From NCBI GenBank assembly GCA_965237675.1, contig OZ250150.1:1344001-1408000 (forward strand): a DNA stretch of 64,000 bases, in the 5' to 3' direction. Shown here piece after piece: positions 16,453 through 58,106 of this stretch (position 1 is the first letter of the stretch; each line of letters begins with the position of its first letter). The position numbers and the translations under genes are program-made. The notes under the pieces were generated by a model. The model was not told the origin of the DNA. It did not search any database and saw only the letters and a program-made list of their open reading frames with translations. Source of the DNA: Candidatus Latescibacterota bacterium. GTDB lineage: Bacteria > Latescibacterota > UBA2968 > GCA-2709665.

Positions 16453-17634
16453 ATGTCCGGGAAACGCCAGGAAGAACGATTCCAGACCACCGACGTGATG
16501 ATGCTTTCCGGCGGGCACGCCGTGCATGACACGTACAGCGGATTTCTTGCGCCCCTGTTACCGGTCTTTATTCAGACCCTGTCTTTGACCAAAACCGAGG
16601 CAGGCATGCTGATGGTGGTCAGGCAGGCGCCGTCCGTGTTTCAGCCGATTGTCGGGCTTCGGGCGGACCGCTCGAATCTGCGCGCCCTCGTCATTCTCGG
16701 ACCCGCCGTCACGGGCATCGCGATGAGTCTGCTCGGCGTGGCCGGTGGGTACGCGACTCTCGTAGCCCTCCTGGTAATCGTCGGCTTCAGTTCGGCCGCT
16801 TTTCACGCGGTTGGACCGGCAATGGCCGGAACACTCTCAGGACCGAATCTGGGTCGCGGCATGGGAATCTGGATGTTGTGCGGTGAACTCGGCCGCACGA
16901 TGGGGCCGATTCTGATCGTGAGCGTCATCGGCCTGTGGGGCGTCGCCGGAACAGCCTATCTTCTCCCCGTGGGCATTGTGGCCTCGCTCGTCCTGTTGTT
17001 GCGGATGAGACGCGTTGCGGCTGAGGATATGTCATTCTACAGGGCGCTGCCGTGGCGTTCCGCGCTGAAACGCATGGCGCCGGTTATGGTACCGCTGTCC
17101 GGCATCGTGTTCGTCCGCGCGTTTACAATGGCCTCCCTCACCGCATTTCTGCCCACGTTCCTGAGCGAAGAGGGCGTGAGCCTGTGGCTGGCTGGCGCGT
17201 CGCTTTCCGTACTCGAAGGCGCCGGCATCGCAGGGGCCCTTATCGGCGGATGGGCGAGCGACCGGTTGGGGCGCAAGCAGGTACTTGGCTTCTCCATGAT
17301 TGCAACACCCATCCTGTTGTTTGTTTTTCTCGAGAGCCAGGGCTGGGTCCTGTTTCCCGTCCTGGTCGTCCTGGGCTTTGTCGCGCTCGCGACCGGCCCC
17401 GTGGTTATGGCGATGGTCCAGGAGAGCTGCCCCGAAAACCGGGCATTCGCCAATGGGATCTATATGGGCGGGGGTTTCACGCTTCGGGGAGTGGCGATGT
17501 TGCTGCTGGGTATGATGGGAGACGCCTATGGCCTGCGGCGGGCGTTCGAAGTCAGCGCCGTTTTGATGTTGATCGGCGTCGCGCTGGTATTGAAGATACC
17601 GGAAAGGCGGGGAGACGGGAGACGGGAGACGTAA
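16453..17634 (+). CDS. MFS transporter (Fsr-like)
   Basis: About 12 hydrophobic segments; H-x-x-HDTY, FQPIVGLRADR, AAFHA and GGWASDRLGRK motifs. Confidence 0.88.
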   Translation: MSGKRQEERFQTTDVMMLSGGHAVHDTYSGFLAPLLPVFIQTLSLTKTEAGMLMVVRQAPSVFQPIVGLRADRSNLRALVILGPAVTGIAMSLLGVAGGYATLVALLVIVGFSSAAFHAVGPAMAGTLSGPNLGRGMGIWMLCGELGRTMGPILIVSVIGLWGVAGTAYLLPVGIVASLVLLLRMRRVAAEDMSFYRALPWRSALKRMAPVMVPLSGIVFVRAFTMASLTAFLPTFLSEEGVSLWLAGASLSVLEGAGIAGALIGGWASDRLGRKQVLGFSMIATPILLFVFLESQGWVLFPVLVVLGFVALATGPVVMAMVQESCPENRAFANGIYMGGGFTLRGVAMLLLGMMGDAYGLRRAFEVSAVLMLIGVALVLKIPERRGDGRRET

Positions 17635-18160
17635 GAGGTCCACACCCGACCGCCAAACCATTGGCGATATGGACACGTGATATATTTCGGCAGCGTACGC
17701 CTTTGTAGGGGCGACCCATGGGTCGCCCGCCTGTCCTGAAGGCGGTGAGAAGGCAGACGGTAGACGTAAGACGACCACACCCCGCCGCCGAACCAGGTTA
17801 ACGATAGGGCCTGCCGGTATCACGTCACCAATGCCCGCGCCGTAACGTGGGCAAACCTGGTGGGTTGCCCATACGAATACAACGACGGCGCGCAACGCGT
17901 CGATTTCAATATCGCGGATTTTTGTTTTGTAGGGGCGGTTCGCGAACCGCCCGCCTGTCAGCTCAACCGCCGCCTTCCCGCCCGACCTCACCCCAATGTA
18001 GTGTCCGACCGTAACGCGAACTGTTAGTTCGCGGGTTATAGTCACACGCGCGCTACGAATCTTCAGCGGTGAGCGAAACGCGGTGAGAGGGAAGACGGTA
18101 GAAGGGAGACGGTAGAGGGGAGAGGTGAGACGTGAAGGGCGAGATGTCAGAGGCGAGTAA
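17601..18160. repeat. Cluster of 7-bp-period GAGACGG/GTAAGAG arrays (17601-17638, 17738-17774, 18064-18158) and GTAG-type REPs (17705-17728, 17929-17952)
   Basis: Degenerate NNAGA(C/G)G heptamers; palindromes GTAGGGGCGACCCATGGGTCGCCC and GTAGGGGCGGTTCGCGAACCGCCC. Confidence 0.75.
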
Positions 18161-18241
18161 AGACAGGTGTAAAATGGTCCGTTGGGTCGGTACTCAAAAA
18201 GGCCAATTGATAATCCGCGGATAGCAGAATTATTGGCGAAG

Positions 18242-18358
18242 TGTTCGATTTGGGACATTAGTGTATCGTTTTCGAACACTTATTATTGGGTCGAGAGCAC
18301 ACCATGTGTTTTAAATATCTGTTAATTAACAAATTGAAGCATTGGCACGTTACTCGCT
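18242..18358 (+). promoter_or_regulatory. Sigma54 promoter (TGGCACG-N4-TCGCT at 18343-18358) with two upstream TGT...ACA enhancer palindromes and an AT-rich spacer
   Basis: TGTTCGATTTGGGACA (18242) and TGTATCGTTTTCGAACA (18262); the same architecture recurs at 21594-21711. Confidence 0.78.
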
Positions 18359-19118
18359 AAAGATATGGAGCATGAAGGTGTCCGGCGTCCTTCATCGTCG
18401 CGTCCAGCGCGGTCTCAGGGGAATGCGTGGTTGATGGCGGTGTGTGTGCGCGGGCTCGCCGGTGCATGTAGATTTCACGATCGTACCGTGAACCTGGGCA
18501 TGCGGTGTACTGCCGGAAGTCGAAGCAGTCACGAAGATCGCGAGATCCAGGTCAGACTTCGCGGCTCAAATCAATGGAGGTTGTGACGCAATGCAGCCGA
18601 TTTCCGTTCTGTTCGTGATGTTCAGCGTGTGTTTGACATTTGTTGGCTGCGGGGCGGGCGATTACGTGCAGGAGGAGGTCATCGAGCGTTCAGCAGTCAT
18701 CCAACCTTCTTAATTCAAAAAGCGGGAATTTACATGGATGGACAGGATGGACGGGATAAAGCCCCAAAAGCCGGAAGAATGCTTTCGATCCTGGGCATTA
18801 GCGATAAATCCATCCACCATAACCTGCGCGACAAAACTCAGATGACGCCGGTCCCACGGTGCAGAATCCATCCCATGCACGATGCCGATCTGCAACCCCA
18901 CCCCCCCAACGGCCAGCGCGCCACCATCGCCTGTCGGCCTGTGCCGTTGGCACGGCAGACAGGTCTCTCCCTTGAAAGTCGCATGACGCCAGGGGAAGTC
19001 CACAGCCCCACAAGGCCGCCCGACCTGGGCTTTTAAACAGCATCCAATAGAGCTGATAGTGAACGGCTAAATGCAGTACTGAGGAATTGCAAATCACGAC
19101 CCAGGAGGCACGAGTCCC

Positions 19119-21470
19119 ATGCTCCGAAATTACCTGATCGTGGCGTACCGCAATCTCATGCGGCACAAGGTCTACTCCGTGATCAACGTGGCAGGCCTCT
19201 CAATCGGGATCGCATTCTGCATTCTGACGTTCCTGTACGTCCGGCGCGAGTGGACGTACGACACGTTCCACGAGAACGCGAAACGGATCTACAGGGTCTA
19301 TGTCAATTCCCGTTTCGGGCCGTCAGCTGAAACGCCGGACCCGCTGGGGCCGGCGCTGGTGGAGACGTTTTCGGACGTCCGGACCGTGAGGATTGGCGGG
19401 GGCGCTTCCTTTGCGAAGTATCAGGAAAGGACCCTTCGCGGAAGTTTTCGCTTTGCCGATCCGGCGATTCTGGAGGTGTTCACGTTTCCACTGCTGCAAG
19501 GAGACCCCGCGACGGTTCTGGAGGATCCGTACTCTCTCGTCATCACAGAAGCGGCGGCGCGGAAATACTTCGGAGATGAAGACCCCCTCGGCAAGGTCCT
19601 TTCAGTGAAACTATGGGGGCCACCGGCGGTGGACCGGGATTTCGTCATAACCGGGGTTGCAAAGTCGGTGCCCAAGACCTCCAGCATCCGGTTCGATTTT
19701 GTGGCTCCGTTTTCGGCCAGAGGCGAACCCAGAGGTTGGAATATAAGAGCTATCCGGACGTTCGTATTACTTCCTCAACACGGACGTCCGTCGGAACTCA
19801 GCGCACGGTTTTCGAATTTGTTACCCAAATATCTGCCGGCATGGATGGGAGAACAGTCGGACACCTCTGTGGGCCTCCAGCCACTCCTGGAGATGCATCT
19901 CGGACGGGGAATACCGGGACTCAGGGGAGCAGGCAATCCGGCATTTTCTTATATTCTTCTGGGAATTGCTCTGCTCGTTCTGGTGAATGCCTGCGTGAAC
20001 TTCATAACCCTTGCCGTGGGCCGGTCATTCTCCCGCGACCGCGAAGTGGCGATGCGAAAGGCGGCCGGTGCGTCGCGGACACAGTTGATGGTACAGTTCA
20101 TGGGAGAGTCGATGCTCTTGAGCGTGGTAGCCATGGTGGCCGGGATCGGTTTGGCGGAACTCGTCCTGCCGGCCTTCAACAACCTGGTGGGCAAGGACCT
20201 CGCCCTGGGCGATCAGGCCGACGGCGCGGGTCTGGCGTTTCTGTTCGGACTGGTGGCGGCCGTCGGGATGGCCGCGGGCGGCTATCCGGCCTACGTGCTG
20301 TCGGGGTTTCAGCCGGTTGCGGTGTGGAATCGACAGCGCAGGATGGGAGCCTCCAGCCTGTTTGGACGGGCGCTCGTAGTTTTCCAATTCGCCCTTTCCG
20401 TCTTCCTGGTTGTCAGTACGTTGCTGATGGTCCGGCAACTGGAGTACCTGAGGACGAAACCGCTCGGCTTCGAGAGTGATTACGTCCTGCGCATCCGGGC
20501 GTGGGACCTGTTTGAACGAGATTCAGACCTGCTTGGGGTGTATCGCAACGAGGTGATGCGACACCATTCTATCCTGGGGACCACGACGACGAGTCACGCG
20601 CTGAGCAACAGGACGAGGTACCTTACCGACATCGAGTACAAAGGCGAAGGAATAGACGTCGAGCAAGTCAATGTCGGCTACGACTTTCTGGCGACGATGG
20701 GGGTCTATCTTCTGGAGGGCGCGGATTTTGATCCACAGAGTTCGGGTTCCCGGGCTTCAATTATCGTGAACGAGGCCCTTGTCCGGCATTTGGGATGGCA
20801 AAGTCCGGTCGCGGGCAGGATGCTGCGCATGAATAAACGGGATGTTACGGTGATTGGGGTGGTAAAGGATTTTCATTTTCGCTCTCTGCACCATACGATC
20901 CGGCCGGCGGTGTTGCAGTTCGACCCGAACGGATATGGCGCCGTGCTTGTCAGGGTCCGCCCGGAGAATATCCCCGGCACGCTGGCCTTCCTCGAGGAGA
21001 AGTGGCTTGAAGTCGCTCCCGACATTCCGTTTCAGTTATCATTTCTTGACGACGAAGTGGATGGGCAATACAGGAAGGAGGAGCGCTGGAACCAAATTGT
21101 CATGTATTCTGCGTTGCTCGCGGTCTTCATCGCCTGTCTCGGGGCGTTCGGGCTAACCGCTCTTGCCGTTTCGCGCCGGACCCGGGAGATCGGGATCCGG
21201 AAGGTCCTGGGAGCCCATGGAACCGAAATCGTCTCACTCTTATCCGGGGATTTCGTTAAGCTCGTGGTCATTGCGAGTCTGATTGCCTGGCCGGTGGCGT
21301 ACTATGCGTCGGACCGATGGCTGCAGGACTTCGTGTATCGGATAGAACCGGGCATCGGCACGTTTGTATTGGGCGGGATATTGATGCTGGTGGTTGTGTT
21401 GTTGACCGTGAGTGTCCAGGCCATCCGGGCGGCGTGGGCGAACCCGGCGGACGCGCTGCGGACCGAGTGA
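19119..21470 (+). CDS. Duplicated ABC permease (permease 6), intact
   Basis: 783 aa, MLRNYLIVAYRNL...NPADALRTE; AGGAGG RBS. Confidence 0.95.
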   Translation: MLRNYLIVAYRNLMRHKVYSVINVAGLSIGIAFCILTFLYVRREWTYDTFHENAKRIYRVYVNSRFGPSAETPDPLGPALVETFSDVRTVRIGGGASFAKYQERTLRGSFRFADPAILEVFTFPLLQGDPATVLEDPYSLVITEAAARKYFGDEDPLGKVLSVKLWGPPAVDRDFVITGVAKSVPKTSSIRFDFVAPFSARGEPRGWNIRAIRTFVLLPQHGRPSELSARFSNLLPKYLPAWMGEQSDTSVGLQPLLEMHLGRGIPGLRGAGNPAFSYILLGIALLVLVNACVNFITLAVGRSFSRDREVAMRKAAGASRTQLMVQFMGESMLLSVVAMVAGIGLAELVLPAFNNLVGKDLALGDQADGAGLAFLFGLVAAVGMAAGGYPAYVLSGFQPVAVWNRQRRMGASSLFGRALVVFQFALSVFLVVSTLLMVRQLEYLRTKPLGFESDYVLRIRAWDLFERDSDLLGVYRNEVMRHHSILGTTTTSHALSNRTRYLTDIEYKGEGIDVEQVNVGYDFLATMGVYLLEGADFDPQSSGSRASIIVNEALVRHLGWQSPVAGRMLRMNKRDVTVIGVVKDFHFRSLHHTIRPAVLQFDPNGYGAVLVRVRPENIPGTLAFLEEKWLEVAPDIPFQLSFLDDEVDGQYRKEERWNQIVMYSALLAVFIACLGAFGLTALAVSRRTREIGIRKVLGAHGTEIVSLLSGDFVKLVVIASLIAWPVAYYASDRWLQDFVYRIEPGIGTFVLGGILMLVVVLLTVSVQAIRAAWANPADALRTE

Positions 21471-21593
21471 AGAGACTTGGCGTGCCCGTGTATTGAGTCT
21501 GTCACCCTCCCCAGCCTGGTAATCGGGGTTATACCGAGGGGCGCAGGCGGATCTTGCAGTTGGACCCTTGCTTCGTTGCGGGTCGCCGCCAAC

Positions 21594-21711
21594 TGTTCGT
21601 TTTCGGACATATATGTATCGAAATCGAACACTTTATTGTCGTTCGCTTGAAAGCGGTTTCGCATAAGTCTTTAAAAATTAACAATAAACAGTCAATGGCA
21701 CGGTTGTCGCT
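21594..21711 (+). promoter_or_regulatory. Sigma54 promoter (TGGCACG-N4-TCGCT at 21696-21711) with two enhancer palindromes
   Basis: TGTTCGTTTTCGGACA (21594) and TGTATCGAAATCGAACA (21614); spacing matches the 18242 module to within 1 bp. Confidence 0.8.
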
Positions 21712-21776
21712 GCTTATATTCAAGGGCTTGGTACCTTGTAGGCATTCGACATGAAAACGGAGTTTGTCCCGTTGTG

Positions 21777-22394
21777 ATGAAAATGAAAAGCGAATACAAG
21801 ACGCTACAATGCGCGCCTGAGTCCGACGCGACGATGATCGAACGGGCGCTTGCGGGCGATGAGTGGGCCTATACGTACCTTTACAGGGCGCATCGCGACC
21901 GCGTGCGGGCGCTCGTGCACCGAAGTGCAAGGAACGCAGATGAGACCGAGGATCTGGTTCAACTGGTCTTTATAAAGGCTTTTCAGGGACTGGCTGGGTT
22001 TCGGGGACAGGCCGCGTTCTCCACGTGGCTGACGCGCATTGCCATGAATGTGCGTACATCCCATTCTCGGTCCTTGAGAAAGCGGAAGAACTGGCTGAGT
22101 GAGGTTGAGGATGCCGTACCCGCGCTCCAGGCGCGGTGGTACGCGTCGCCTCACGAGGATCCCGAAGCGGTGATGGTGCGGAAGGAGCGCAGGGAAATTG
22201 TGATGCGGAGCATCCGGGCGCTGCTGGAACGGCATCGGGAGGCGGTCTGGTTGCATTATGTGGGTGAACGGTCCTATCATGAGATCGTCGAAGAACTCCA
22301 GGTGCCCATCGGAACGTTGAAAGTCTGGCTATACCGAGGAAGGCATCAGTTGAGACGGGAGGTTGAGCGGCTGGGGATGGCGGTGAGTCTATAG
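21777..22394 (+). CDS. ECF-family RNA polymerase sigma factor
   Basis: Region 2 (EDLVQLVFIKAF...FSTWLTRIAMN) and region 4 (SYHEIVEELQVPIGTLKVWLYRGR). Start uncertain among 21774, 21777 and 21783. Confidence 0.92.
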   Translation: MKMKSEYKTLQCAPESDATMIERALAGDEWAYTYLYRAHRDRVRALVHRSARNADETEDLVQLVFIKAFQGLAGFRGQAAFSTWLTRIAMNVRTSHSRSLRKRKNWLSEVEDAVPALQARWYASPHEDPEAVMVRKERREIVMRSIRALLERHREAVWLHYVGERSYHEIVEELQVPIGTLKVWLYRGRHQLRREVERLGMAVSL

Positions 22395-22460
22395 GAACTG
22401 GAAAGAATCGACCTGGAATGGTTGCACGCCAACGTCTCAGGGGTTGTAAAGGTAAGTCCT

Positions 22461-23909
22461 ATGGCAGAGCGAAAACCACAGAAGGACAAGGGACGGGTGT
22501 TGAAGCTGGATCAGGCAGGCGCGCCGGCCGATCGCCAGACTTCCAGTCGGGAATCGTCCGAGGGAACGTCAGACTCCGTTGGCGGAGATAGACCGATGCC
22601 CGGTTTCGTGGGTGCCGGTACCTCGGCGTCTGAAGGGGCACGCCAGAAAACGATCCCTGGCACGGACCGCAAACTCGAAAAGAAATTTTGGAAGCCGAAA
22701 CGCATCCTGAGCGTTGGCGCGGTCGCGGCATTTGTGGGACTGGTCCTCTATATGGCCATTTTTGGAGACCACAGCGCCAGGCTCAACGTGCAGGTCGAGC
22801 GAATTACGATTGCGGAAGTCACCCGCGGCCCCTTCCAGGAATTCATTCCCCAGCGCGGCACCGTGATGCCCATTCAGTCGCACTACCTGGATGCGCTGGA
22901 AGGCGGGCAGGTGGAGGAGATATTCCTTGAAGAGGGGGCAATGGTAGAAAAAGGCACGCGGATCTTGCGCATGTCGAACCCATCCCTGGAACAGACCGTA
23001 TTGAGCCAGGAAGCGCAGTTGTTCGAGCAGATCAACAGAATGGAAAACACCCGATTGAGCCAGGAGATACAGGATATCCAGCGCAAGCGTTCCCTGATGG
23101 ACATCGAACTGGACCTGCAGAAATCCGAGCGCGATTTTCGGAAACAGAAAGCGCTATTCGAAAACAAATTCGCCTCGAGAGACGAATTTGAAGAGGCAAG
23201 AGACAAATACGGACACGCGCAGAAGCTTAAGGTGTTCATGCTGGAGACCTTGCGGCGCGACTCCCTCTATCGAATCAATGAACTGGCTGCCCTGCAGAAG
23301 CGCGCATGGAGCCTGCAGCTCCAACTGGATGACGTGCGTCGCCCGCTGAGGAATCTGATCGTCCGCGCGCCGATCGACGGTCAACTTTCGCAACTCAACG
23401 CCGAGATCGGCAAGTTGATCGCGAAGGGGACCAGCATTGGCCAGATCGACGTTCTGGACGCTTACAAGATGCGTGCGGCTATCGATGAATTCTACATTAC
23501 CAGAATCACGACTGGGCTGAAAGGGACGATTGAAATTGACGATGAGACGTATGAGTTGAAGATCCGTCGGGTTTTCCCCGAGGTAAAGGAGGGCCAGTTC
23601 GAGGTCGATATGGATTTCACAGGCGAGGCGCCTCAGAGCATTCGTCGCGGCCAGACGGAGCAGATTCGGCTGGAGTTGGACGCGCCCGAAGAAGCGTTAT
23701 TGCTGCCGCGGGGCGCGTTCTATCAGACCACGGGCGGCAACTGGGTCTTCGTGGTCGAGGGCGACCTGGCCGTGCGGCGCCAGGTTCGCATCGGACGCCA
23801 GAATCCCGAGTACTTTGAAGTGCTCGAGGGCCTGTCCCCAGGGGAACGGGTGGTGACCTCGTCGTACGAAAATTATGAAGAAATCGATAAATTGGTCTTA
23901 CAGCGGTAA
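22461..23909 (+). CDS. MacA/HlyD-family periplasmic adaptor (membrane fusion protein)
   Basis: N-terminal TM segment, biotinyl-lipoyl halves (EGGQVEEIFLEEG; VRAPIDGQL), coiled coil, and GRQNPEYFEVLEGL. Confidence 0.92.
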   Translation: MAERKPQKDKGRVLKLDQAGAPADRQTSSRESSEGTSDSVGGDRPMPGFVGAGTSASEGARQKTIPGTDRKLEKKFWKPKRILSVGAVAAFVGLVLYMAIFGDHSARLNVQVERITIAEVTRGPFQEFIPQRGTVMPIQSHYLDALEGGQVEEIFLEEGAMVEKGTRILRMSNPSLEQTVLSQEAQLFEQINRMENTRLSQEIQDIQRKRSLMDIELDLQKSERDFRKQKALFENKFASRDEFEEARDKYGHAQKLKVFMLETLRRDSLYRINELAALQKRAWSLQLQLDDVRRPLRNLIVRAPIDGQLSQLNAEIGKLIAKGTSIGQIDVLDAYKMRAAIDEFYITRITTGLKGTIEIDDETYELKIRRVFPEVKEGQFEVDMDFTGEAPQSIRRGQTEQIRLELDAPEEALLLPRGAFYQTTGGNWVFVVEGDLAVRRQVRIGRQNPEYFEVLEGLSPGERVVTSSYENYEEIDKLVLQR

Positions 23910-23992
23910 GAGGTGAGAAGGAAGACGTAAGAGGATGGAAGTCTCGCCACTTTGTTCGGCGCTAAAGTCAAATGGGATAGAGCCAAAACACG

Positions 23993-24352
23993 ATGTTGAA
24001 TCTCAGCCACAAAAAGCTTGAAGCATGGAAAATGAGTATTGATCTGGTGAACGAGATTTATACTTTGACCTCTGAATTTCCTTCCACCGAAATCTATGGC
24101 ATTACCAGCCAGTTACGTCGGTCTGCTGTCTCAATACCGTCTAACATCGCCGAGGGATCAGCGAGATCTTCGAATACTGAACGCAGAAGATTTCTCGAAA
24201 TAGCCAGGAGTTCGCTGGTTGAGTTGGATACTCAACTTGAAATTGCACTAAACCTCCAATTGTGTTCGGACGATGACGTTCAATCAATATCAGAAACGAT
24301 GAATCGTTTGTTTGGTTTACTCTCAGGATTGATTAGTAGAGTTTCCTCGTAA
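23993..24352 (+). CDS. Four helix bundle protein (23S rRNA intervening-sequence protein / bAvd-like family)
   Basis: FPSTEIYGITSQLRRSAVSIPSNIAEG and FLEIARSSLVELDTQL signatures; lower GC than neighbours. Confidence 0.93.
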   Translation: MLNLSHKKLEAWKMSIDLVNEIYTLTSEFPSTEIYGITSQLRRSAVSIPSNIAEGSARSSNTERRRFLEIARSSLVELDTQLEIALNLQLCSDDDVQSISETMNRLFGLLSGLISRVSS

Positions 24353-24401
24353 CCCGTGCCGATTCGTTAGCCATTTTTGTTACGGCCAATAAAACGAACG
24401 G

Positions 24402-25120
24402 GCACTCATATCCTCTCCCGTCTAACGTCTTCCGTCTAACTTCGGTAAGAGGTGAGCCGGGAGACGGCAGTGGAAAAACCTTGCCACCGGATGCGGCGCC
24501 AGAGCGAGAAGGGATAGCGCCAAGACACGATGCTGATTTTCAGCCAAATTGCGTTACTGCCAGGACTGACAAATAGGGTTTCGTCGTAATCCGTGCTGAA
24601 AACTCAGCCAATGTCTTTTGCGACTTTTGAGACGATAATGCACTCATATCCTCTCCCGTCTCCCGTCTAACGTCTACCCTTTCATCAGGCACTCATATCC
24701 TCTCCCGTCTCCCGTCTAACGTCTACCCTTTCATCAGGCACTCATATCCTCTCCCGTCTCCCGTCTAACGTCTACCCTTTCATCAGGCACTCATATCCTC
24801 TCCCGTCCAACGTCTTCCGTCTAACTTCGGTAAGAGGTGAGCCGGGAGACGGCAGTGGAAAAACCTTGCCACCGGATGCGGCGCCAGAGCGAGAAGGGAT
24901 AGCGCCAAGACACGATGCTGATTTTCAGCCAAATTGCGTTACTGTCAGGACTGACAAATAGGGTTTCGTCGTAATCCGTGCCGAAAACTCAGCCAATGTC
25001 TTTTGCGACTTTTGAGACGATAAGGTACTCACATCATCTCCCGTCTCCCGTCTAACGTCTACCCTTTCATAAGGCACTCACATCATCTCCCGTCTCCCGT
25101 CTAACGTCTTCCGTCTACCC
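24402..25120 (+). repeat. Complex repeat: two copies (period 385 bp) of an internally deleted four-helix-bundle cassette, plus three exact 49-bp tandem units (24640-24786)
   Basis: The 49-mer GCACTCATATCCTCTCCCGTCTCCCGTCTAACGTCTACCCTTTCATCAG occurs three times; mini-ORFs at 24530-24589 and 24915-24974. Confidence 0.9.
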
Positions 25121-25140
25121 TTTTTAAAAGGAGCTCCAAG

Positions 25141-25830
25141 ATGATCAAAACGGTTAATCTACAGAAAGTCTACCGAACGGAAGAAGTCGAAACGACCGCG
25201 CTTCGGAATGTCAATCTGGAGATTAGCGAAGGCGAGTTCGTGGCGGTGATGGGCCCCTCGGGTTGCGGCAAGTCCACGCTTCTGAACGTGCTGGGGCTGT
25301 TGGATAACCCGACGGATGGGGAATACTATCTGAACGACGTGGAGGTGTCGAAACACACGGAGCGGCAGAGAGCGGACACCCGGAAAGAGAATATCGGATT
25401 CGTGTTTCAGAGTTTCAATCTGATCGACGAACTGACCGTGGCCGAGAATATCGAACTGCCGCTGCTGTACCTGAAGATGCCGTCCAAAGAACGCAGGAAG
25501 CGCGTGGATGAGTCGATGGAGTATATGGGCATCAAGCACAGGGAGAAACACTTCCCGCAGCAGTTGTCGGGCGGCCAGCAGCAGCGGGTGGCCGTGGCGC
25601 GGGCGGTCATTTCGAATCCGAAAATGATCCTTGCGGATGAGCCCACGGGGAATCTGGACTCCGCCAACGGCAATGAAGTGATGGGATTGTTGACGGAATT
25701 GAACAAGAACGGGACGACCATCGTGATGGTGACGCACAAAGCCCACGATGCGGGATATGCCCATCGCGTCGTTCACCTGTTCGACGGCCACGTGGTGACC
25801 GAGAATATCAAGGAGCAAGCGCCGAATTAA
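25141..25830 (+). CDS. ABC transporter ATP-binding protein (LolD/MacB type)
   Basis: Walker A GPSGCGKST, LSGGQQQR, Walker B ILADEPTGNLD, and VTH switch. Confidence 0.96.
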   Translation: MIKTVNLQKVYRTEEVETTALRNVNLEISEGEFVAVMGPSGCGKSTLLNVLGLLDNPTDGEYYLNDVEVSKHTERQRADTRKENIGFVFQSFNLIDELTVAENIELPLLYLKMPSKERRKRVDESMEYMGIKHREKHFPQQLSGGQQQRVAVARAVISNPKMILADEPTGNLDSANGNEVMGLLTELNKNGTTIVMVTHKAHDAGYAHRVVHLFDGHVVTENIKEQAPN

Positions 25831-25971
25831 CCGCAGCGCGACGATAGAACGGGGGTCGAAACCGGGTACCTGACCCGAGTCCGGGGGGTTTACTCGTTAC
25901 TCCCCATTTTTCTGTCGCCGCTCATCTCGCCCGTGCCCGCCCGTATTCCTCCGACAGCGACGTTCCCGTCC

Positions 25972-26934
25972 CTACAACGTTCCCTGGTGCCCGGCGCGGA
26001 TGGCCTCGCACAGGCGCATGGTCTGTACGGCGTCGTCCAGGGTTGACCATGGCTCGCGGTCTTCCAGAATGCAGTCGACGAAGTGGACGATCTCGTTGTA
26101 GCCGGACCCGCCCACGGCCTCGATCTCATCGCCCTCCAGTGAAAAAGCCTCGCCCTGATCATAGCCCTCTACTTGCGGCGCCCTTGTCAGATCGAGATAA
26201 ACCGAAAGGTCTTCGCCGTGTACCTCAGCCCACTGGATGCGATAACCCACGCCATAGTGGCTCATCAAAACGCCGAAGGCGCCCGTATCGAAGCGCACCA
26301 CGGCGTTGTGGCGGTGGCATCCGGGGCGCTCGCCATCCTGCACTATCCCCCGCACCTCCACCGGTACGGCCGCTTCCTCGGGGCTGGGACCCGCCAACCA
26401 GCGGATCAGGTCCACGTGGTGAATGGCGTCGCAGATCACCGGATCCGGCGTTGCGGCCTTAAACCGGGTTACCCGTTTGTTGTACGTGGCCGCGACGTGT
26501 ACCGCGCCCCCGCCCGCCTGGATACGCCGCCGGACGGCCAGCACGTGAGGATAGTATCTCCGGTTGAACGATACGATGGCCTTGCCCGTGCTGCGCCGGG
26601 CGGCGTGCGCCATCTGCTCGGTCTCATCGGTGTTCATCCCGGGCGACTTCTCCACCGACGTGTGAATACCGCGTTCCAGGCAATCCAGCACGATGGGCAG
26701 CAGATGACCGGGGTCCGTGACGACGTACACGAGATCCGGCCGGCACGCGTCGAGCATCTGCCGGTAGTCCGTAGAGGCCAGGTCCGGCGCCCATTCCGCC
26801 CTGTTTTTTCGGAGACGCTCCCCGTCGAGTTCCGCGATGCCCGCCAGCTGAAGGCGTGGCTCGTCGGCAATCATCTTGAAATGCGACTGGGCGTGCCCGC
26901 CACAGCCGATAACCGCGGCTTTCAGATCAGTCAT
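25972..26934 (-). CDS. Gfo/Idh/MocA-family oxidoreductase
   Basis: VIGCGGHA, EKSP, FNRRY and AIHHVD motifs. Confidence 0.9.
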   Translation of the reverse strand: MTDLKAAVIGCGGHAQSHFKMIADEPRLQLAGIAELDGERLRKNRAEWAPDLASTDYRQMLDACRPDLVYVVTDPGHLLPIVLDCLERGIHTSVEKSPGMNTDETEQMAHAARRSTGKAIVSFNRRYYPHVLAVRRRIQAGGGAVHVAATYNKRVTRFKAATPDPVICDAIHHVDLIRWLAGPSPEEAAVPVEVRGIVQDGERPGCHRHNAVVRFDTGAFGVLMSHYGVGYRIQWAEVHGEDLSVYLDLTRAPQVEGYDQGEAFSLEGDEIEAVGGSGYNEIVHFVDCILEDREPWSTLDDAVQTMRLCEAIRAGHQGTL

Positions 26935-27006
26935 GGTGAATTCCTTTCAAGGAGGGTAGACGGAAGAAGGAAATAGATAAGAAAGAAAAACGCGAAGATG
27001 TATAAC

Positions 27007-27650
27007 CTACCCCACCCCCTAACGTCCCCTATTCCCTTGCCCTTTTTCGAAGGGCCGGGAGACGGAAGAGGTAAGACGGTAGAGGAAAAACCTTGCCACC
27101 TGATGCGGCGCCAAGCCAAAAAGGATAGCGCCGGAACGCCATATTGAAACATGTGCGCCATGGTCTTGAGATTGACACAACAGCGTTTCCACGTGACCCG
27201 TGCCTATTCAGTAGCCATAGTTGAGTCCACTCCGAAAAGTGAGATTCGCGTGATTTTCTTCCAATTTGGATCAGGAACGGCCATTTTCAATAAAAGCTAT
27301 ATCCCCATAAATCATTATATATAATAGTGTTATATCAAGTATGATTTCGATTTACTTCTGAGTGAAACACCAACTTGGACCTCGTCAGAGAGGATTTTGA
27401 CTTTTCGGAGGAGACTCATAGTTGTTACGGCAAATTAAACGACCAGGCACTCATATCGTCTCACTTCTTCCGTCTAACGTCTCACTGCCTTTAGAAGAAG
27501 GGCGCCGCTCGGCGCGGGGCCGGTTTTTCCGTGAATTTCCTCAGTAGTGGAATTGGAAATCGGGTGGCCTATGAGCCCTCCAGGAGCTGCCGGTGTACGG
27601 AGATTTACGGAATAACACGGAAAAACCCCCCGCTCCACCTCCGTCCGGTC
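27007..27650 (+). repeat. Structured dispersed repeat ('element X', copy D), interrupted at ~27049-27496 by a heptamer-bounded cassette remnant
   Basis: The left arm CCCCACCCCCTAACGTCCCCTATTCCCTTGCCCTTTTTC and right arm AAGAAGGGCGCCGCTCGGCGCGGGGCCGGTTTTTCCGTG...CACGGAAAAACCCCC both match the uninterrupted copies. Confidence 0.8.
27223..27417. mobile_element. 195-bp MITE with 18-bp TIRs and a 6-bp TSD
   Basis: TIRs GAGTCCACTCCGAAAAGT / ACTTTTCGGAGGAGACTC (2 mismatches); ATAGTT duplicated at 27217-27222 and 27418-27423; AT-rich non-coding core. Confidence 0.85.
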
Positions 27651-27940
27651 ATTAGTTATTCCTTGAAGTTCTGGCGAGCGGAATGGCGCTTGTACCGCTC
27701 TTTGCTGTATGCCGATAGTTATCTGCCAAATGCTGACCGCTGATCGCTCCTCACCCCCAGGAAACCACACCGTTCTCTAACACGATGCCTCTTGAGAGGA
27801 CTACCAGAGCAGGGCGCGTTTTTCCGTCCCGCTCCAAATTACGATTTCCTCCGTGGTTGGCAGGGCAGCGGATTGGGTGGGTCCCGTGAAGTAATTCGCG
27901 CCATGCATAAAACAGGCCCCGCGCCCAGCGGCGACTATTG

Positions 27941-28110
27941 CAAAGGCGGTAAGAGGTAAGAGGCGAGACGGTAGAGGGCTAAAAACTCTGTAATATTTCG
28001 CCCTCAAATCCGGTCTGTCACTAACGGGCTAATGGAAATGGATCACGAATGAGGGCACCAAACCGGTGACGGTGTCTTCTCCCCTCTCCCGTCTTACGTC
28101 TCACGGTCTT
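27941..28110. repeat. Small element bounded by inverted heptamer arrays (AAGGCGGTAAGAGGTAAGAGGCGAGACGGTAGAGGG ... CCCCTCTCCCGTCTTACGTCTCACGGTCTT)
   Basis: Purine array on the left, complementary pyrimidine array on the right, and about 100 bp of unique core. Confidence 0.7.
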
Positions 28111-28388
28111 AGGGAACCCGCCGTAGGCAGGGAATTTGTGGAAAGGTGGATTTTGATTTTGACTTTCCCCTATTGCCTTTGGCTGACCCCTGACCGCTAC
28201 GTAGGGTAACATCTGTTCGGGCACATAGATAACACTTTTCGTGGCGACCCCTGCAGGCTGCCACGTGACCGTTGAGGTGAGAAGTGTCGATAACCGGAAC
28301 GGTCGCGCTCGGGGTCGATGCGGTGCGCCGCAGCAACGTTCGACCGGGGGTAAAGCGAGTGCGAACGCGAGGTGCGTCCCTTTTTCTG

Positions 28389-28418
28389 TTGACAACTGTG
28401 GAGTTCCAACAGTACCAT
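28389..28418 (+). promoter_or_regulatory. Candidate sigma70 promoter TTGACA-N18-TACCAT upstream of the PhyH gene
   Basis: Perfect -35 box and near-consensus -10 box; spacer is 18 bp. Confidence 0.4.
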
Positions 28419-28474
28419 GACACCTGCAGTTTGCGTTGTTTTCTGGCGATTGTACAACATAGAGGAGGTAAGAA

Positions 28475-30229
28475 ATGGACCGGGAGGAGATGAGCCACGA
28501 GGAGAACTACTGTTTCGATATCTCGGGCTACCTGATCTTACGGGGTGTTTTGACGCCCAAAGAGGTCGAGGCCTGCAATCGGGCGCTCGAGCGCGAGGGC
28601 CGCGTGAGTGGGATGCTGGGATGGCCCGCACCGCATAGGGAGCCGTTCCGGGACCTGATGGCCCATCCCGTGCTGGTTGGGTACCTGAACCAGCTCATCG
28701 GATATGGTTTCCGGCTGGACCGGGAACCGGAGCTGATCGGCAAAGCGGATGGGGCTGCCGGCGGCCTCGTTGGCGGCAATGAACCGATGGACGCCGGCCG
28801 GGCCTACTACATCCTCAACGGCCGCCGGCACTGACAGGGAATACACGCCATCTGGGCGCTGTCCGATACGAGCGCGGGAGATGGCGGGTTTTCGCTGGTC
28901 CCGTGCAGCCACAAAAGCAATGTGGGAACCCCCGAAGATGTGCTGACCGGGAGGGACGACCTGGGACTGACCGTGCAGCCGGTGCTGAAGGCGGGCGACC
29001 TGCTGCTGTGCACGGCGACCCTGCTTCAGGGCGTACGTCCCGGAACGAGGGAGCACCCGCAGCGGCTGCTCTTGTACAAATACGCGGGGCACGCGGCGGT
29101 GCAATCCATCGGCACCGGGCCGAAGACCCGACGGGAGGACCAGCCGGAATGGATGGCGGAATTGACGCCGGAGCAGCGTGTTATGCTGCACAAGCCGGGA
29201 TACGGGGATTCGGACCCGCCTCCCACGCTCAGCTCGGATGGAGAGACCTGTTGGGTGGACCCGGAACCCGACCTGTCCCACCCTTCCATCTATATCAAGA
29301 ATCCGGATTCGAACATCGACGAGAAGGAGTTCTATTTCTGGGACCTGTGCGGTAATCTCGTCCTCCGAAATGTGATGACTCCGGAAGACCTGGCGCTGGC
29401 GAACGAGGCGGTCGACCGGTTTACGGACCGCATCGTGGTTGAAAGCGTAGATCTGGCCAAGGGGTCCAAGAGCCTGGCCGGAACCGGGCGGCCCACCATG
29501 ACCGGCCTGCTTGAAATGCCCAGGCCCTACTGTGAACCGTTCCGGAAGATGCTCGCCCACCCGGCAGTGGTACACCGCCTCACCTGGATGGGCGGGAAGG
29601 GCTTCCGGTGTACGGGCTTTGAGGCGATCTGTACGGCCAGCGGAGGCGCCGGACATTTTCTTCATGGCGGCAACGAGCCGTTGAGTCCATCTCGCAACTA
29701 TACCTTCCAGAACGGCCGCAGCTATGCGCTGGGGGGCCCGTCCGTTGCGGTGGCCTGGCAATTGCGGGATGTCACCGAAAACGACGGGGGGTTTGCCTGC
29801 GTGCCGGGAAGCCACAAGGCGCAGTACCGCATCCCCAAGGGCGTTTGGACCTGCGACGAGGACATGGGGCTGGTGGTACATCCGCTGACAAAGGCCGGGG
29901 ACGTCATCTTTTTTATGGACGGCCCGCAGGCGCACGGTGCACTGGCGTGGAAGAGCGACATCCAGCGCCGCGTAATCCTGACGCGGTACTCCTCGCGGCA
30001 CTTCAACGGGGGAGCGGCAATGGCGACCCCGGAGGAGAGATGGGGGGGTCTTCTGGAGGGGATGGGTGGGGCGCAGCTGGCGGTGATGCGGGGGCCGGAC
30101 CGCGACGAGAAGGCCAGCAACGTGCCGCGGCTGGTTTCGGAGAACGGAAAAATCGAGGTCGTTTACGACCGGAGTCAGGGTGGGCTTTACACCGGGGCGA
30201 CCCCTAAGGGGGCGCCGTCCAGGCGTTGA
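28475..30229 (+). CDS. Tandem-domain phytanoyl-CoA dioxygenase (PhyH)-family protein with one in-frame TGA at 28832-28834 (recoding or pseudogene)
   Basis: ORFs 28475-28834 and 28922-30229 share a frame. Read-through gives NGRRH*QGIHAIWALSD...GGFSLVPCSHKSN, paralleling domain 2 (WQLRDV...GGFACVPGSHKA). Confidence 0.85.
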
Positions 30230-30253
30230 GACCCGAGGCACGTGAGGTTGAAG

Positions 30254-30480
30254 TTTCCCCACCCCCTCAACGTCCCCTATTCCCTTGCCCTTTTTCTTTC
30301 TCGCCAAAGAAAAAGGGCCAAAAATAACGGCGCCGCTCAGACGCCGCGGGGCTGCTTTTCCGCGAATCACTTCACCGGAAATTACCAGCGTCGTTGCCCT
30401 GCGGCCCATTGGAGCGATCCGGAACCACAATGCTGGACGGATTGGCGCGGAAAAGCCCCCGCCCCGCCTCCGGACGGGCG
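30254..30480 (+). repeat. Structured dispersed repeat, element X copy A; followed by a GTAG-REP at 30548-30575
   Basis: Hairpin GCCCTTTTTCTTT-CTCGCC-AAAGAAAAAGGGC and long-range stem CTTTTCCGCG/CGCGGAAAAG. Confidence 0.8.
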
Positions 30481-30667
30481 AGAGTTGGAACGCGAAGGAC
30501 CGCGCCGCTGGATTGGTGGTCGTGCCGCTGAACGACGCATGGTATCCGTAGGGGCGACCGGCCGGTCGCCCCTACAAAACCGGACATCCGAGATATAGAT
30601 ATCGCAATTTGACTCAGGCAGGCCGTATCGATGTCCGGTGCGGTGCGGTCCTCTTCCTTCTACCGTC

Positions 30668-31654
30668 TCACCGCTTTTCCTCCGCCCGCTTCCTCATCGG
30701 ATCGTATCCGATGCTGAGCGGGAGTTCGATGAGTTCACGGGTGCGGGCGGATTCGTGCATGGCCATGAGGAGTTCGGTTGTGGCGCGGCCTTTTTCACCC
30801 GTGCTCCGGTGTTCGGGCCCGCCTTCGAGCCAGGCGATCATTTCACGTGTTTGTTCAAAGAAGCCGGGTTTGGGTTCCTCGCGAAAGCTTGTGATGCCAT
30901 TCTTGTCCGTGAGGACGACTTCGTCCAGGGCGGCGTCTATCGTTGCTTCGCTGCCCAGAACGCGAAAGCGGAACCCGTCTTTTGGTGTCTTTTCGCCCAT
31001 TTCGACGAGGGCGCGGGTCCCGGTCTTGAAAGCGACAAGCCCCATGCTGGATTCTTCGGCGGGCGATCCCTGGTACAGGGTGCCGCGTTTTCGGGAGGCC
31101 TGGCCCATCACCCAGTCCGCGTCCGGGTCGCCCAAAAGGTAGCGCATCATGTCGACGATGTGCGTGCCGTTGTCCACAAGGCAACTGGTGAGATAACTCC
31201 AGACGAGGCGCGGTTCTCCAACGGCGCCGTCCGCGATCAGGCGGCGCGCCTTGTCGAAGTTGGGGTTCTGGCGGTGGCGATGGGCAATGACCAGCCGCGT
31301 ATTGTTCTGCCGGCAGGCGTGGATCATGCCGTCGGCTTCGTCCAGGCTCAGGCACATGGGTTTTTCGCAGAGCACGGCTTTCGCGCCGGCATTCGTTGCG
31401 GCGATGGTCTGCTCGGCGTGGACCTTCGGGTAGGTGCACACGCTGACGAGATCGATGTCGTGCTCGTGCCTGAAGAGGTCCTGGTGGGACGCGTATCGAC
31501 CCGATATGTTGAATTGGTCGCAGGTTCTATTGAGGTTCTCCGGGTTGATGTCACAGGCGGCAACAAGCTGGACGCCGCCCTGTTCCAGGTAGGCCTTTGC
31601 ATGGCGGCCGGAGATGTTGCCGCAGCCGATGAGGGCCGCTCGGTAGGAGGGCAT
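30668..31654 (-). CDS. Gfo/Idh/MocA-family oxidoreductase
   Basis: LIGCGNIS, LCEKPM and GTHIVD motifs. Confidence 0.92.
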   Translation of the reverse strand: MPSYRAALIGCGNISGRHAKAYLEQGGVQLVAACDINPENLNRTCDQFNISGRYASHQDLFRHEHDIDLVSVCTYPKVHAEQTIAATNAGAKAVLCEKPMCLSLDEADGMIHACRQNNTRLVIAHRHRQNPNFDKARRLIADGAVGEPRLVWSYLTSCLVDNGTHIVDMMRYLLGDPDADWVMGQASRKRGTLYQGSPAEESSMGLVAFKTGTRALVEMGEKTPKDGFRFRVLGSEATIDAALDEVVLTDKNGITSFREEPKPGFFEQTREMIAWLEGGPEHRSTGEKGRATTELLMAMHESARTRELIELPLSIGYDPMRKRAEEKR

Positions 31655-31728
31655 TGATGTCGCTCCGTATGACGGGGTTGGACGATGGGCCTGCGAGAAT
31701 CGGCGCCGTACGGTTCAAACGCCGGAGA

Positions 31729-32667
31729 TCAGGGAGTCCAGGATTTCGCGCATTCGGCGTATTCTCGCGCCTGTGCGGGGATATCCACGCCGACCTCCTC
31801 CGACCAGGCTTCGATGAGACGTCGATACACGGGGCCGGGACGGCCCGAGCCGACCGGCTGGAAGTTGAAGCGGGTGATGGGAATCATGCAGATGGTGGTC
31901 GACGTGTACCAGGCTTCTTCGGCGTCGCGGACATCGTAGGGTTCGATATTGGCTTCCCGGACTGGGATGTCCAGCTTTTCGGCCAGTTCCATGCACGCCT
32001 GTCGTGAGATACCGCGCAGGATATCGTGGGGCCTGGGGGTAAGGACTTCGCCATTGAGGACGATAAAAAAGTTGTTGCCGGTGCCTTCGGTGATGAATCC
32101 ATGTTCGTCGGTGAGGAGGGCGTTGGCCCCGTTTTCCATGCGTTGCGCCTGCAGATTGGCAAGCTGATAGTAGATGCGGCTGCGGTTTTTTGCTTTGGGG
32201 TCTATGTAGCGGGCGGGTACGGACTGCTGGGGCGTGACCACAAAATGGGCGCCCTGATCGTAATAGTGCGCCGTGCCCCCGATGTGCCGCACGAGTGGGA
32301 TGACATTGATGGTAACGATCGGACGCAGCCCTTCCCGGACGAGCGTGTCGTACAGGGGAAGGGCCCCCCGGGTGACGTTGTGCATGATCTGGTAGTCCAG
32401 GCCTTCCAACGCGGGCAGATTCCGTTCTATGATCTCCCCGGTGGCGGCTTCCATCTCTTCAATACTCAGGCCGCAATCGATTTCGGCGTATTTCATGGAC
32501 GCGTAAAGCCGGTCCAGGTGGTTGCGCAGGCGGTAGGGTTTTTGCTTGAATGAGCGGGTCATTTCAAATACCATGTCTCCGAACATGAGGGCCGAGTCGA
32601 ATATGGAGATGCGGGCGTCGCGTTCGGATACATAGCTGCCGTTGAAGTAGACGAGGCGCTGAGGCAT
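31729..32667 (-). CDS. Aminotransferase class IV (PLP-dependent; IlvE/D-AAT-like)
   Basis: YFNGSYV...ISIFDSALMFGDMVFE, H-LDRL, EGTGNNFF and LRGISR motifs. Confidence 0.9.
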   Translation of the reverse strand: MPQRLVYFNGSYVSERDARISIFDSALMFGDMVFEMTRSFKQKPYRLRNHLDRLYASMKYAEIDCGLSIEEMEAATGEIIERNLPALEGLDYQIMHNVTRGALPLYDTLVREGLRPIVTINVIPLVRHIGGTAHYYDQGAHFVVTPQQSVPARYIDPKAKNRSRIYYQLANLQAQRMENGANALLTDEHGFITEGTGNNFFIVLNGEVLTPRPHDILRGISRQACMELAEKLDIPVREANIEPYDVRDAEEAWYTSTTICMIPITRFNFQPVGSGRPGPVYRRLIEAWSEEVGVDIPAQAREYAECAKSWTP

Positions 32668-32907
32668 GGGAACACCTCTCAGTAAGGGTTTGGAAAGCGG
32701 TAAGAGGCGAGAGGTAAAACGGGAGAGGGGTTGGTGACCCCATAGTCTGAATGAGAGGGGGCTGTCCGCCTAACGTTGCCCGCTAATTGCCGACCGCTGC
32801 TTTTTATATATACAATCAAATTTTGTGAAATTCAAGCTTTGTTACCCGGTGGAGCTTTTGGGTTGGCGGGGCAGCCTATCGTGGCGGTTGCGGCAAGGAG
32901 TATACCA

Positions 32908-45654: not shown

Positions 45655-46271
45655 GCGAGCCGATCCGCATCCTCGTTGTCGACGATCATCCGGTTGTTCG
45701 CGACGGCCTGACCGCGATGTTGAATACGCAGTCCGATTTCGAGGTGGTGGGAGAAGCCAGTGACGGGGAGGAGGCGTTGCAGAGGGTTGCGGAGTGGGAC
45801 CCCGACGTGCTGTTGCTCGATCTGGAGATGCCGGGCGTGGATGGGATCGAGACCCTTCAGCGGTTGAGACAAAGTAAGGCCAGGGCGCGGGCGATTGTAT
45901 TTACGGTTTTTGATACCGACGAGCGCATTGTCTCGGCGATGAAGGCTGGCGCAAAGGGCTATTTGCTCAAGGGCGCGCCCAGAGACGACGTGTTCCGCGC
46001 CGTGCGGGTGGTCAACGAAGGCGGGTCGTTGCTCGAGCCGCTGATCGCTTCAAGGTTCCTGGACAGCATCAATAATCCCGATGCGTTGACAGCGCGCCAA
46101 AAGGAAGTGCTGAAACTGATCGCAACGGGTCTTCTGAACAAAGAAATCGCCGACCGACTCTACATTTCTGAACGAACGGTCAAGTTCCACGTCAGCGAGA
46201 TCCTGGCCAAGCTCGGCGCGGGAAATCGTACGGAGGCAGTCGCAATTGCGACACAGCGAGGGTTGATATAA
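45651..46271 (+). CDS. NarL/LuxR-family response regulator
   Basis: VDDH, LLDLEMP and HTH LTARQKEVL...NKEIADRLYISERTVKFHV; 4-bp overlap with the kinase gene. Confidence 0.96.
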   Translation: MSEPIRILVVDDHPVVRDGLTAMLNTQSDFEVVGEASDGEEALQRVAEWDPDVLLLDLEMPGVDGIETLQRLRQSKARARAIVFTVFDTDERIVSAMKAGAKGYLLKGAPRDDVFRAVRVVNEGGSLLEPLIASRFLDSINNPDALTARQKEVLKLIATGLLNKEIADRLYISERTVKFHVSEILAKLGAGNRTEAVAIATQRGLI

Positions 46272-46420
46272 GCAATCAGCTTTCAGCTATCAGCCCGGTC
46301 CCATCCACCCACTAAAGTTGCCTTTTCAGGGCCGCTGGCATGTGCGCGCATTTAATTCAAGCGGCATCGCGTCCTGCTCGTTTTCGTCATTCAATCCACT
46401 GAGGAGAAGGACATACTGAG

Positions 46421-58090: not shown

Positions 58091-58106
58091 GACGAAAACC
58101 TCCGGC

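Follow-up and report, generated by a model that had tools for sequence, protein, structure and literature searches.

Tandem heptamer arrays at gene junctions of a Latescibacterota genome: probable inverted arms of cassettes resembling rRNA intervening sequences

In Coxiella burnetii, the intervening sequence (IVS) that encodes S23p is bounded by a 28-bp stem with one mismatch and one bulge, which RNase III cuts in mid-stem, and a relative of S23p forms a homopentamer of four-helix bundles (PMC4990558). Here we analyze a 64,000-nt stretch (the window) of the Candidatus Latescibacterota bacterium assembly GCA_965237675.1 (contig OZ250150.1; G000:C1:1344001-1408000 in our numbering, where G000 is a genome of 5.61 Mb with 58% GC), in which tandem arrays of a heptamer with the consensus N-R-A-G-A-N-G stand at the ends of genes and enclose a gene of the S23p family, PF05635. 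These arrays probably form the inverted ends of a selfish family of hairpin cassettes that resemble an IVS, and such arms would make insertions at gene ends tolerable. Coordinates are window positions unless marked as chromosome, and relatives are denoted by genome numbers (G002, G003 and so on).

Correia elements (CREE/NEMIS) of Neisseria are co-transcribed, and RNase III can bind or cut the hairpins that they form in mRNAs, which affects neighboring genes (PMC2649163). Arrays of the heptamer TAACTGA in Beggiatoaceae, cyanobacteria and Bacteroidetes are nearly all intergenic and strongly oriented to start codons; some overlap the upstream stop codon, the forward strand gives stops in all frames, and the patchy taxonomic spread suggests transfer (PMC4679880). 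Avd is an accessory protein of diversity-generating retroelements (PMC10053308; bioRxiv 10.1101/2023.10.23.563531), and within cas loci Zhang and co-workers recorded, without explanation, 18 genes of the PF05635 family, including one that separates cmr3 from cmr2 (PMC3936711). Our literature searches, in which most subscription journals were not covered, found no paper that ties the PF05635 family to heptamer-armed cassettes at operon junctions.

Inverted heptamer arms and the gene between them

Arrays were located by scanning for perfect NRAGANG seed units and extending through neighbors that match at least four of the five fixed positions, and reading the sequence at the places named in the original prediction confirmed the tandem units. 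The genome contains 208 such arrays of at least three units and 147 of at least four, which exceeds chance: 2 Mb of the real plus strand hold 20, 32, 9 and 1 arrays of three, four, five and seven units, compared with 12 of three units and one of four in the block-shuffled control. Most of the longer arrays (135/147) are intergenic according to a crude codon-usage and longest-open-reading-frame (ORF) caller, the start coordinates of which are approximate, and about 20 arrays lie between 17.6 and 32.7 kb of the window. Their spread along G000:C1 (100-kb bins) is uneven, with 49 of the 147 purine arrays at chromosome 1.3-1.6 Mb and few at 3.0-4.3 Mb.

The arrays are the inverted arms, purine left and pyrimidine right, of hairpin cassettes. 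Neighboring arrays no more than 2 kb apart stand in the order purine-then-pyrimidine in 52 cases and in the reverse order in 13, mostly at junctions of tandem elements, and 104 of the 208 arrays are paired in convergent inverted orientation. Cores of 103-107 nt separate the arms in 23 of the 52 pairs and cores of 67 nt in six; the 28 elements with cores of 98-120 nt, about 165 nt long each, can be aligned as one family. Conserved inner motifs of four types lie on the inner side of 91 of 142 arrays and on the outer side of four, and the outer ends share the consensus AA..CGG, each arm reading 5'-AA..CGG (TRAGANG)n on its own strand. One cassette has an intact gene; the majority of copies are derivatives shortened by internal deletion, hairpins of ~165 nt that have no gene, or half elements.

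The intact gene (23993-24352, plus strand, 119 amino acids) matches PF05635, '23S rRNA intervening sequence protein', with an E-value of 3.9e-36 and 123.9 bits (cut-off 33.8), as the original prediction, made from the DNA letters and their translations, had supposed for this cargo, and also matches the solved Xanthomonas protein 2gsc (E 2.8e-30). It is the sole PF05635 match in the genome, and its GC content is 42%, compared with 58% for the genome. All six pairwise comparisons among this copy and three relatives' copies give a dN/dS of 0.11-0.16, which indicates purifying selection and hence that the gene encodes a working protein. Among 41 genomes of the order the number of PF05635 matches ranges from 0 to 14 per genome, with at least one match in 12 of 14 congeners and in six of 16 sister-genus genomes.

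The link between gene and heptamers was also examined in the best 80 loci that encode relatives of the protein, drawn from many phyla. Strict period-7 repetition is present in at least one 160-nt flank at 36 of the 77 scorable loci, and in both flanks at 12, compared with 0, 0, 7 and 2 of 77 at the control lags of 5, 6, 8 and 9. Distances from arm boundaries to neighboring genes in 36 family loci (11/18, 23/33) were discarded as unreliable, as RNAduplex had extended the arms across almost all of each 160-nt flank. Neighbors were called crudely, each as the longest frame open over 100 codons or more; the gene has the orientation of its upstream neighbor at 62 of 76 loci, that of its downstream neighbor at 64 of 76, and that of both at 53 of 73, being opposed to both at six. 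On the basis of this family-wide sense bias, the gene is probably read from host operon transcripts, as the IVS depends on transcription of the rRNA.

Relatives provide empty and filled versions of the same junctions. The spacer between the genes for an HlyD-type adaptor and an ABC ATPase is empty in three sister-genus genomes (G020, G024 and G026), where 32 nt comprise the stop codon, about 20 nt, AAAGGAG and ATG, and it measures 16 nt in G015; in all 12 congeners for which both anchors were found it is filled with 230-1240 nt. In seven of these 12 spacers the arms at either end are of the purine type, and among these seven G000, G003 and G014 carry an intact gene while G012 carries a deletion derivative; four have GCTGATA-type arms only; and the spacer of G009 is a hybrid, in which a short purine remnant precedes a CAGCTAT/GCTGATA-armed cassette with a different four-helix-bundle gene. 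Two sister-genus genomes have small GCTGA-type remnants in this spacer, and another, G019 (L017, G019:C1:3636800-3640100), has a long (CCTCTCG)n array together with an inserted gene that, by eye only, we take to be IS110-family transposase-like. The expectation that such inserts are tolerated was borne out: all 14 congeners retain an unbroken ATPase frame with 96-99% identity, which in the 12 with a measurable spacer stands behind an insert of 230-1240 nt. At a second junction (G000 970021-970193, chromosome), G002 is empty, with 26 nt, and 12 other matching congeners carry ~300-850 nt. Upstream of rplI, the intact cassette (91% protein identity) is present in record L026 at a locus syntenic with chromosome 1556127-1558310, where G000 has a gene-less hairpin. 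The content of occupied spacers turns over quickly.

In its complete form, the element would consist of one Avd-like PF05635 four-helix-bundle gene between its arms, read from the host operon transcript. The ancestral spacers of 16-32 nt leave no other room, so a tolerated insertion would have to land exactly between the stop codon and the ribosome-binding site (RBS). Units that start with TGA or TAA account for 225 of 648; the purine strand closes at least one frame in 139 of 147 arrays and all three in 12, whereas the opposite strand closes none in 112 of 147. An arm read from the outside inward is rich in TAA and TGA, so that an element that lands in the last codons of a gene would be closed off at once; any RNase III cut would split the operon transcript into separate mRNAs, without rejoining. 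The stop codon of the upstream gene lies inside or overlaps the array in 17 cases, including the major facilitator superfamily (MFS) gene of the window, and annotators should be aware that a repeat arm supplies the last residues and the stop codon of such genes.

Cassettes and half elements of the window

Profile annotation of the genes among which the elements lie bears out the names given in the original prediction and identifies an MFS transporter, a MacB-type permease, a sigma factor, the HlyD-type adaptor, the ABC ATPase, two Gfo/Idh/MocA oxidoreductases and a class IV aminotransferase. The intact cassette begins with a left purine arm (23907-23934, plus strand), the first three bases of which are the TAA stop codon of the adaptor gene (22422-23909), and ends, beyond the four-helix-bundle gene, with a right arm (24412-24439, minus strand; pyrimidine on the plus strand). 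Directly downstream are two internal-deletion derivatives on the plus strand, both of which retain the 5' untranslated region (UTR), six codons from the start of the gene and twelve from its end, and the 3'UTR. The first (24446-24830), as read from the sequence, consists of a purine arm (24446-24466), 5'UTR, remnant ORF and 3'UTR; its remnant ORF (24530-24589) fuses the first and last codons of the gene into 20 codons, and its right end is a 49-nt unit repeated 3.4 times (24640-24807). The second (24831-25125) is a 385-nt direct repeat of the first, with right-arm copies at 25035-25069 and 25084-25125, the latter of which stops 15 nt short of the ATPase ATG (25141). A second junction of like build, L110 (G000:C1:5530850-5532700), has its first purine arm 4 nt after the stop codon, several tandem cassettes and deletion derivatives, and a last arm that ends 26 nt before the next start codon. 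Read in antisense, the conserved motif of the cassette 5'UTR (minus strand 24483-24497, 24868-24882 and 27095-27109) forms a small GC hairpin followed by TTTTT, a terminator-like arrangement that runs against the direction of the four-helix-bundle gene.

Further downstream, a three-unit array (26949-26969, plus strand) is pyrimidine in the sense of a Gfo gene (25972-26934, minus strand) and lies directly 5' of its RBS, ending 14 nt before the ATG. A decayed cassette (27058-27484, plus strand) has a purine arm (27058-27085) and a pyrimidine arm (27457-27484), between which a 5'UTR and gene remnant (~27086-27225), of a subfamily also found in G014 and G003, is followed by AT-rich filler. The gene-less hairpin at 27950-28103 (plus strand) has arms at 27950-27977 and 28076-28103 around a 98-nt core, and is nested in a ~390-nt repeat. 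This larger repeat is present at window 27790-27949 and 28104-28160, at G000:C1:1470581-1470972 and in about 17-20 further copies; its left part of ~160 nt has no Rfam match. A ~200-nt repeat with a GC hairpin followed by a T-run occurs at window 27485-27650 and 30280-30480 and at G000:C1:1471043-1471243, with roughly 40-68 copies in the genome according to BLAST coverage.

Five arrays have no partner in reach yet carry the inner motifs of the family, and are half elements. A purine array of four units (17611-17638, plus strand) codes for the last residues of the MFS protein and its stop codon (17632-17634), and has an inner flank of the 'CCACACC..' half-element type; in this MFS region every one of the 14 congeners ceases to align at 17611-17653, which is where the stop codon lies. 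A solo purine array of four units (17746-17773, plus strand) shares its orientation, and a solo purine array of seven units (18084-18132, plus strand) is among the two longest of the genome. The purine array at 30650-30677 (minus strand) holds the TGA stop codon of the second Gfo gene (30668-31654, minus strand), and contigs of relatives have 204 other letters in place of 30234-30675, between two convergent stop codons. Finally, an array of five units (32694-32728, plus strand) is pyrimidine in the sense of the aminotransferase gene (31729-32667, minus strand) and lies 26 nt 5' of its ATG; its inner flank belongs to the 'GGTTGGT..' type and leads into units of the other family of heptamers. 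The original prediction was accurate on these placements, both for the MFS, adaptor and Gfo stop codons that lie within purine arrays and for the pyrimidine arrays that precede the RBSs of the ATPase, the other Gfo protein and the aminotransferase.

Repetitive extragenic palindrome (REP)-like sequences (GTAGGGGCGACC...GGTCGCCCCTAC and a variant) are interleaved with the heptamer elements at 17700-17735, 17925-17960 and 30540-30575, and contigs from both DNA and RNA runs join 17736 to 17926, which indicates variants lacking the stretch between two of these palindromes. An ORF of 119 amino acids with good codon usage and no Pfam match (28475-28834) lies directly upstream of a gene for a PhyH-family dioxygenase (28922-30229), and is covered by RNA-library contigs of relatives. 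A search of Rfam over 16-34 kb at E ≤ 1 returned no matches, and neither promoter-like sites (10 vs 6.2, SD 2.5) nor terminator-like sites (17 vs 15.8, SD 3.8) are enriched in 17-33.5 kb.

Polarity, RNA pairing and rival explanations

The arrays had been described as strictly polar, beginning at upstream stop codons and ending at downstream RBSs. Tabulated genome-wide, the bias of outer ends toward genes is strong but not absolute: of 142 intergenic arrays, oriented on the purine strand, 38 have a gene end no more than 30 nt away on the outer (5') side (26 same-strand stop codons and 12 opposite-strand start codons) and three have one on the inner (3') side, at least two of these three occupying a short spacer with genes close by on either side; within 100 nt the numbers are 60 and 15. 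For paired arms this order does not bear the transcript signature that had been read into it, because an inverted repeat reads purine-then-pyrimidine on either strand, and the geometry is uninformative on transcripts. The polarity is still non-trivial, in that it is the outer end that contacts genes, in solo arrays too (within 30 nt, outer 23/54 and inner 2/54) and likewise in an unrelated heptamer family, GCTGANN/NNTCAGC. The latter comprises 142 arrays genome-wide (135 intergenic), mostly solo or in same-orientation series, with the same gene-facing polarity (31 vs 4); period-7 arrays at 46267-46294 (TATCAGC) and 58105-58163 (GCAATCA) may belong to it.

In the minimum free energy (MFE) fold of 23895-24450 the two arms pair with each other and so close the cassette, as had been anticipated, the 556-nt whole being only modestly more stable than shuffled sequences (z -1.6); the fold of the full 1251-nt adaptor-ATPase spacer pairs arms of different cassettes. 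Among the elements of at most 260 nt, 41 of 45 MFE folds have at least 15 arm-arm pairs (median 22 pairs, median z -2.5). The stems fall short of what had been envisaged in that they are imperfect, interrupted about every 7 nt, with a longest perfect helix of median 7 bp and maximum 13 bp that reaches at least 10 bp in eight of the 45, and next to the rRNA stem they would make poor substrates for RNase III. Ungapped complementarity of the arms is 0.71-0.76 at shifts of 0, ±7 and ±14 nt and 0.42-0.58 otherwise; the arms are thus predicted, in agreement with the earlier proposal, to pair in several registers 7 nt apart, none of them preferred. Cognate arms do not pair better than non-cognate ones (-34.2 vs -36.4 kcal/mol; shuffled arm -23.5), which implies that there is no covariation between arms at the unit's three variable positions.

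The 52 pairs are distributed over co-directional (32), divergent (16) and convergent (4) spacers, a split that roughly tracks the share of intergenic DNA, with divergent spacers over-represented, and that does not accord with elements specific to operons. Nor does G000 show any sign of arms adapted to pair within host mRNA, as the host-sense RNA is the more stable in 10 of its co-directional spacers and the antisense in 20 (p 0.06); neither this comparison nor that of cognate with non-cognate arms reveals selection for RNA pairing. Gene-less cores are in sense with transcription in seven cases and in antisense in three, these being few and the copies not independent. At 76 family loci the flanks pair better as sense RNA in 46 cases and as antisense in 26 (p 0.019), with 14.0% vs 11.8% G-U pairs, a weak bias that strand composition could produce. 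The RNA data are contigs of six RNA-library runs that hold at most 0.10 of the sampled words, and the contigs show no starts, ends or strand. A 3509-nt contig of a ~90% identical relative connects the adaptor gene, by way of one cassette, with the ATPase and Gfo genes, which is compatible with co-transcription, DNA carry-over being possible. A contig of a ~90% identical relative lacks 24438-25120 and represents a strain with one cassette instead of three; at the adaptor-ATPase junction, no arm-to-arm joint that would remove a cassette is present among the contigs listed.

The original prediction held that the arms could pair in the operon transcript and that the insert would be looped out, or excised by RNase III, which would keep stop codon and RBS adjacent and make the insertion nearly silent. 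The predicted arm-arm stems and their registers, the single rnc gene of G000, the strong sense orientation of the gene in the 80 family loci with slightly better pairing of the sense flanks, the intact downstream genes and the relative's contig that spans adaptor, cassette and ATPase all fit this model, and RNase III excision is established for the rRNA IVS (PMC4990558). We nevertheless regard it as unlikely, considering the interrupted stems, the absence of covariation, the antisense advantage in G000, the composition effect that may lie behind the family bias, and the 20 of 52 pairs that lie outside co-directional spacers. Moreover, no ligation step that rejoins cut transcripts is known in bacteria, and an RNase III cut would split the operon mRNA instead of restoring the junction.

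A different proposal would make the arrays regulators of host translation, as suggested for the TAACTGA heptamers, at which cassettes merely dock: a pyrimidine array ahead of the RBS would serve as a leader, either anti-Shine-Dalgarno or S1-binding, and a Shine-Dalgarno-like purine array after the stop codon as a ribosome stand-by or pausing site. The polarity of solo arrays, the identical geometry of the GCTGANN family, the fixity of the outer arms while the interior turns over and the precedent of oriented heptamer arrays beside start codons (PMC4679880) are in keeping with such a role; we consider it very improbable, however, in that sister-genus sites are empty with stop codon and RBS intact, so that these genes need no array, the inner motifs are element-specific, and the sequence, number and even family of the units vary at one junction among congeners. 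We give almost no credence to plain replication-slippage microsatellites without element structure, even though tandem repeats of at least three copies most often have period 7 (111 arrays, compared with 77 for period 6 and 28 for period 8) and the unit number per array ranges from 3 to 7. Slippage alone is contradicted by convergent pairs at fixed spacings, by the aligned family of dispersed, near-identical copies, by the conserved inner motifs and by the link to one gene family across phyla.

Several observations weigh against the reading that we prefer, in which the arrays are arms of selfish hairpin cassettes. Half of the aligned gene-less hairpins (14/28) have common outer flanks, being enclosed in the ~390-nt repeat, which has inverted ends CCGGAGG...CCTCCGG; the hairpins have thus partly spread as passengers of that repeat, and there are fewer independent insertions than the copy count implies. 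No transposase or recombinase is found in or next to the cassettes. At two empty/filled comparisons no target-site duplication is evident, but A-runs and microhomology are common to the ends and the target. The outermost arms keep their place at stop codon and RBS while the interior turns over among congeners, which could mean that they are kept for a host function, and the 142 GCTGANN arrays are present with no second four-helix-bundle gene, so that arrays persist without a matching gene. Movement was not observed: that the cassettes are mobile as units we infer from comparison of genomes, and we likewise infer that the hairpins form in RNA.

A bolder extension, which we hold to be decidedly unlikely, would treat PF05635 cassettes as a phylum-spanning class of mobile elements on operon transcripts, of which the rRNA IVS is the best-known landing site, with arms in which a binding site for the Avd-like protein of the element itself is iterated, and bacterial heptamer repeats that are largely their debris. 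The pentameric four-helix-bundle protein would bind the double-stranded arms and recruit a host enzyme (reverse transcriptase or nuclease) to move the cassette, while an RNase III cut at the imperfect stem would release the cassette mRNA and split the operon transcript harmlessly. The main hint of protein-binding arms is that the consensus is conserved on both arms without covariation. If so, gene-bearing rRNA IVS, operon-internal genes for S23p or four-helix-bundle proteins (such as those between cas genes, PMC3936711) and the excess of oriented heptamers, until now considered separately, would be one phenomenon; heptamer arrays would have a testable source; and the hypervariable operon spacers of this genus, amid flanking genes that are 96-99% identical, would be explained.

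Comparison with known systems

As in the 23S rRNA IVS of Coxiella burnetii and Leptospira, a small PF05635 gene lies in sense within the host transcript, between terminal inverted repeats that fold into a stem, with a GC content below that of the host and a scattered occurrence among relatives. The cassette differs in that it stands between protein genes and not in 23S helix 25 or 45; the single 23S match of the genome (3032 nt) contains none of the listed arrays of at least four units and no PF05635 match. Its arms are degenerate tandem heptamers with interrupted pairing, in place of the near-perfect 28-bp stem described for Coxiella, and many gene-less and half copies accompany it.

Short, dispersed inverted-repeat hairpins in intergenic spacers and operons are also a feature of CREE and of bacterial MITEs, i.e., transposable elements of the miniature inverted-repeat kind (PMC2649163, PMC10969869). 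Terminal inverted repeats and many short copies, by which MITEs are recognized, are both found here, in the 52 convergent pairs and the 28 aligned elements of ~165 nt. CREE have a TA duplication and an insertion sequence-like origin. Their terminal repeats are defined and non-repetitive, unlike the heptamer-array arms of the cassettes, for which no duplication is evident at the two junctions compared. The full-length parent of a classical MITE encodes a transposase, whereas the parent here encodes a four-helix-bundle protein only, and the derivatives are its deletions.

With the TAACTGA arrays, the NRAGANG arrays share their intergenic position and orientation relative to start codons. The former are almost all unpaired direct repeats (1/170 inverted) of one exact unit, with no linked gene (PMC4679880), whereas NRAGANG units are degenerate, half of their arrays stand in inverted pairs, and they are tied to a gene family. 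The cassette protein belongs to PF05635, as does Avd. Unlike a diversity-generating retroelement, the cassette has no template or variable repeat beside its gene and no reverse transcriptase among the annotated genes of 16.4-34.2 kb, the four reverse transcriptase matches of G000 lying at 0.52, 2.69, 3.96 and 4.79 Mb, away from it. The cassettes work like both an rRNA IVS and a MITE and are filed under neither: location and stem quality separate them from the former, and a parent that encodes a four-helix-bundle protein instead of a transposase separates them from the latter.

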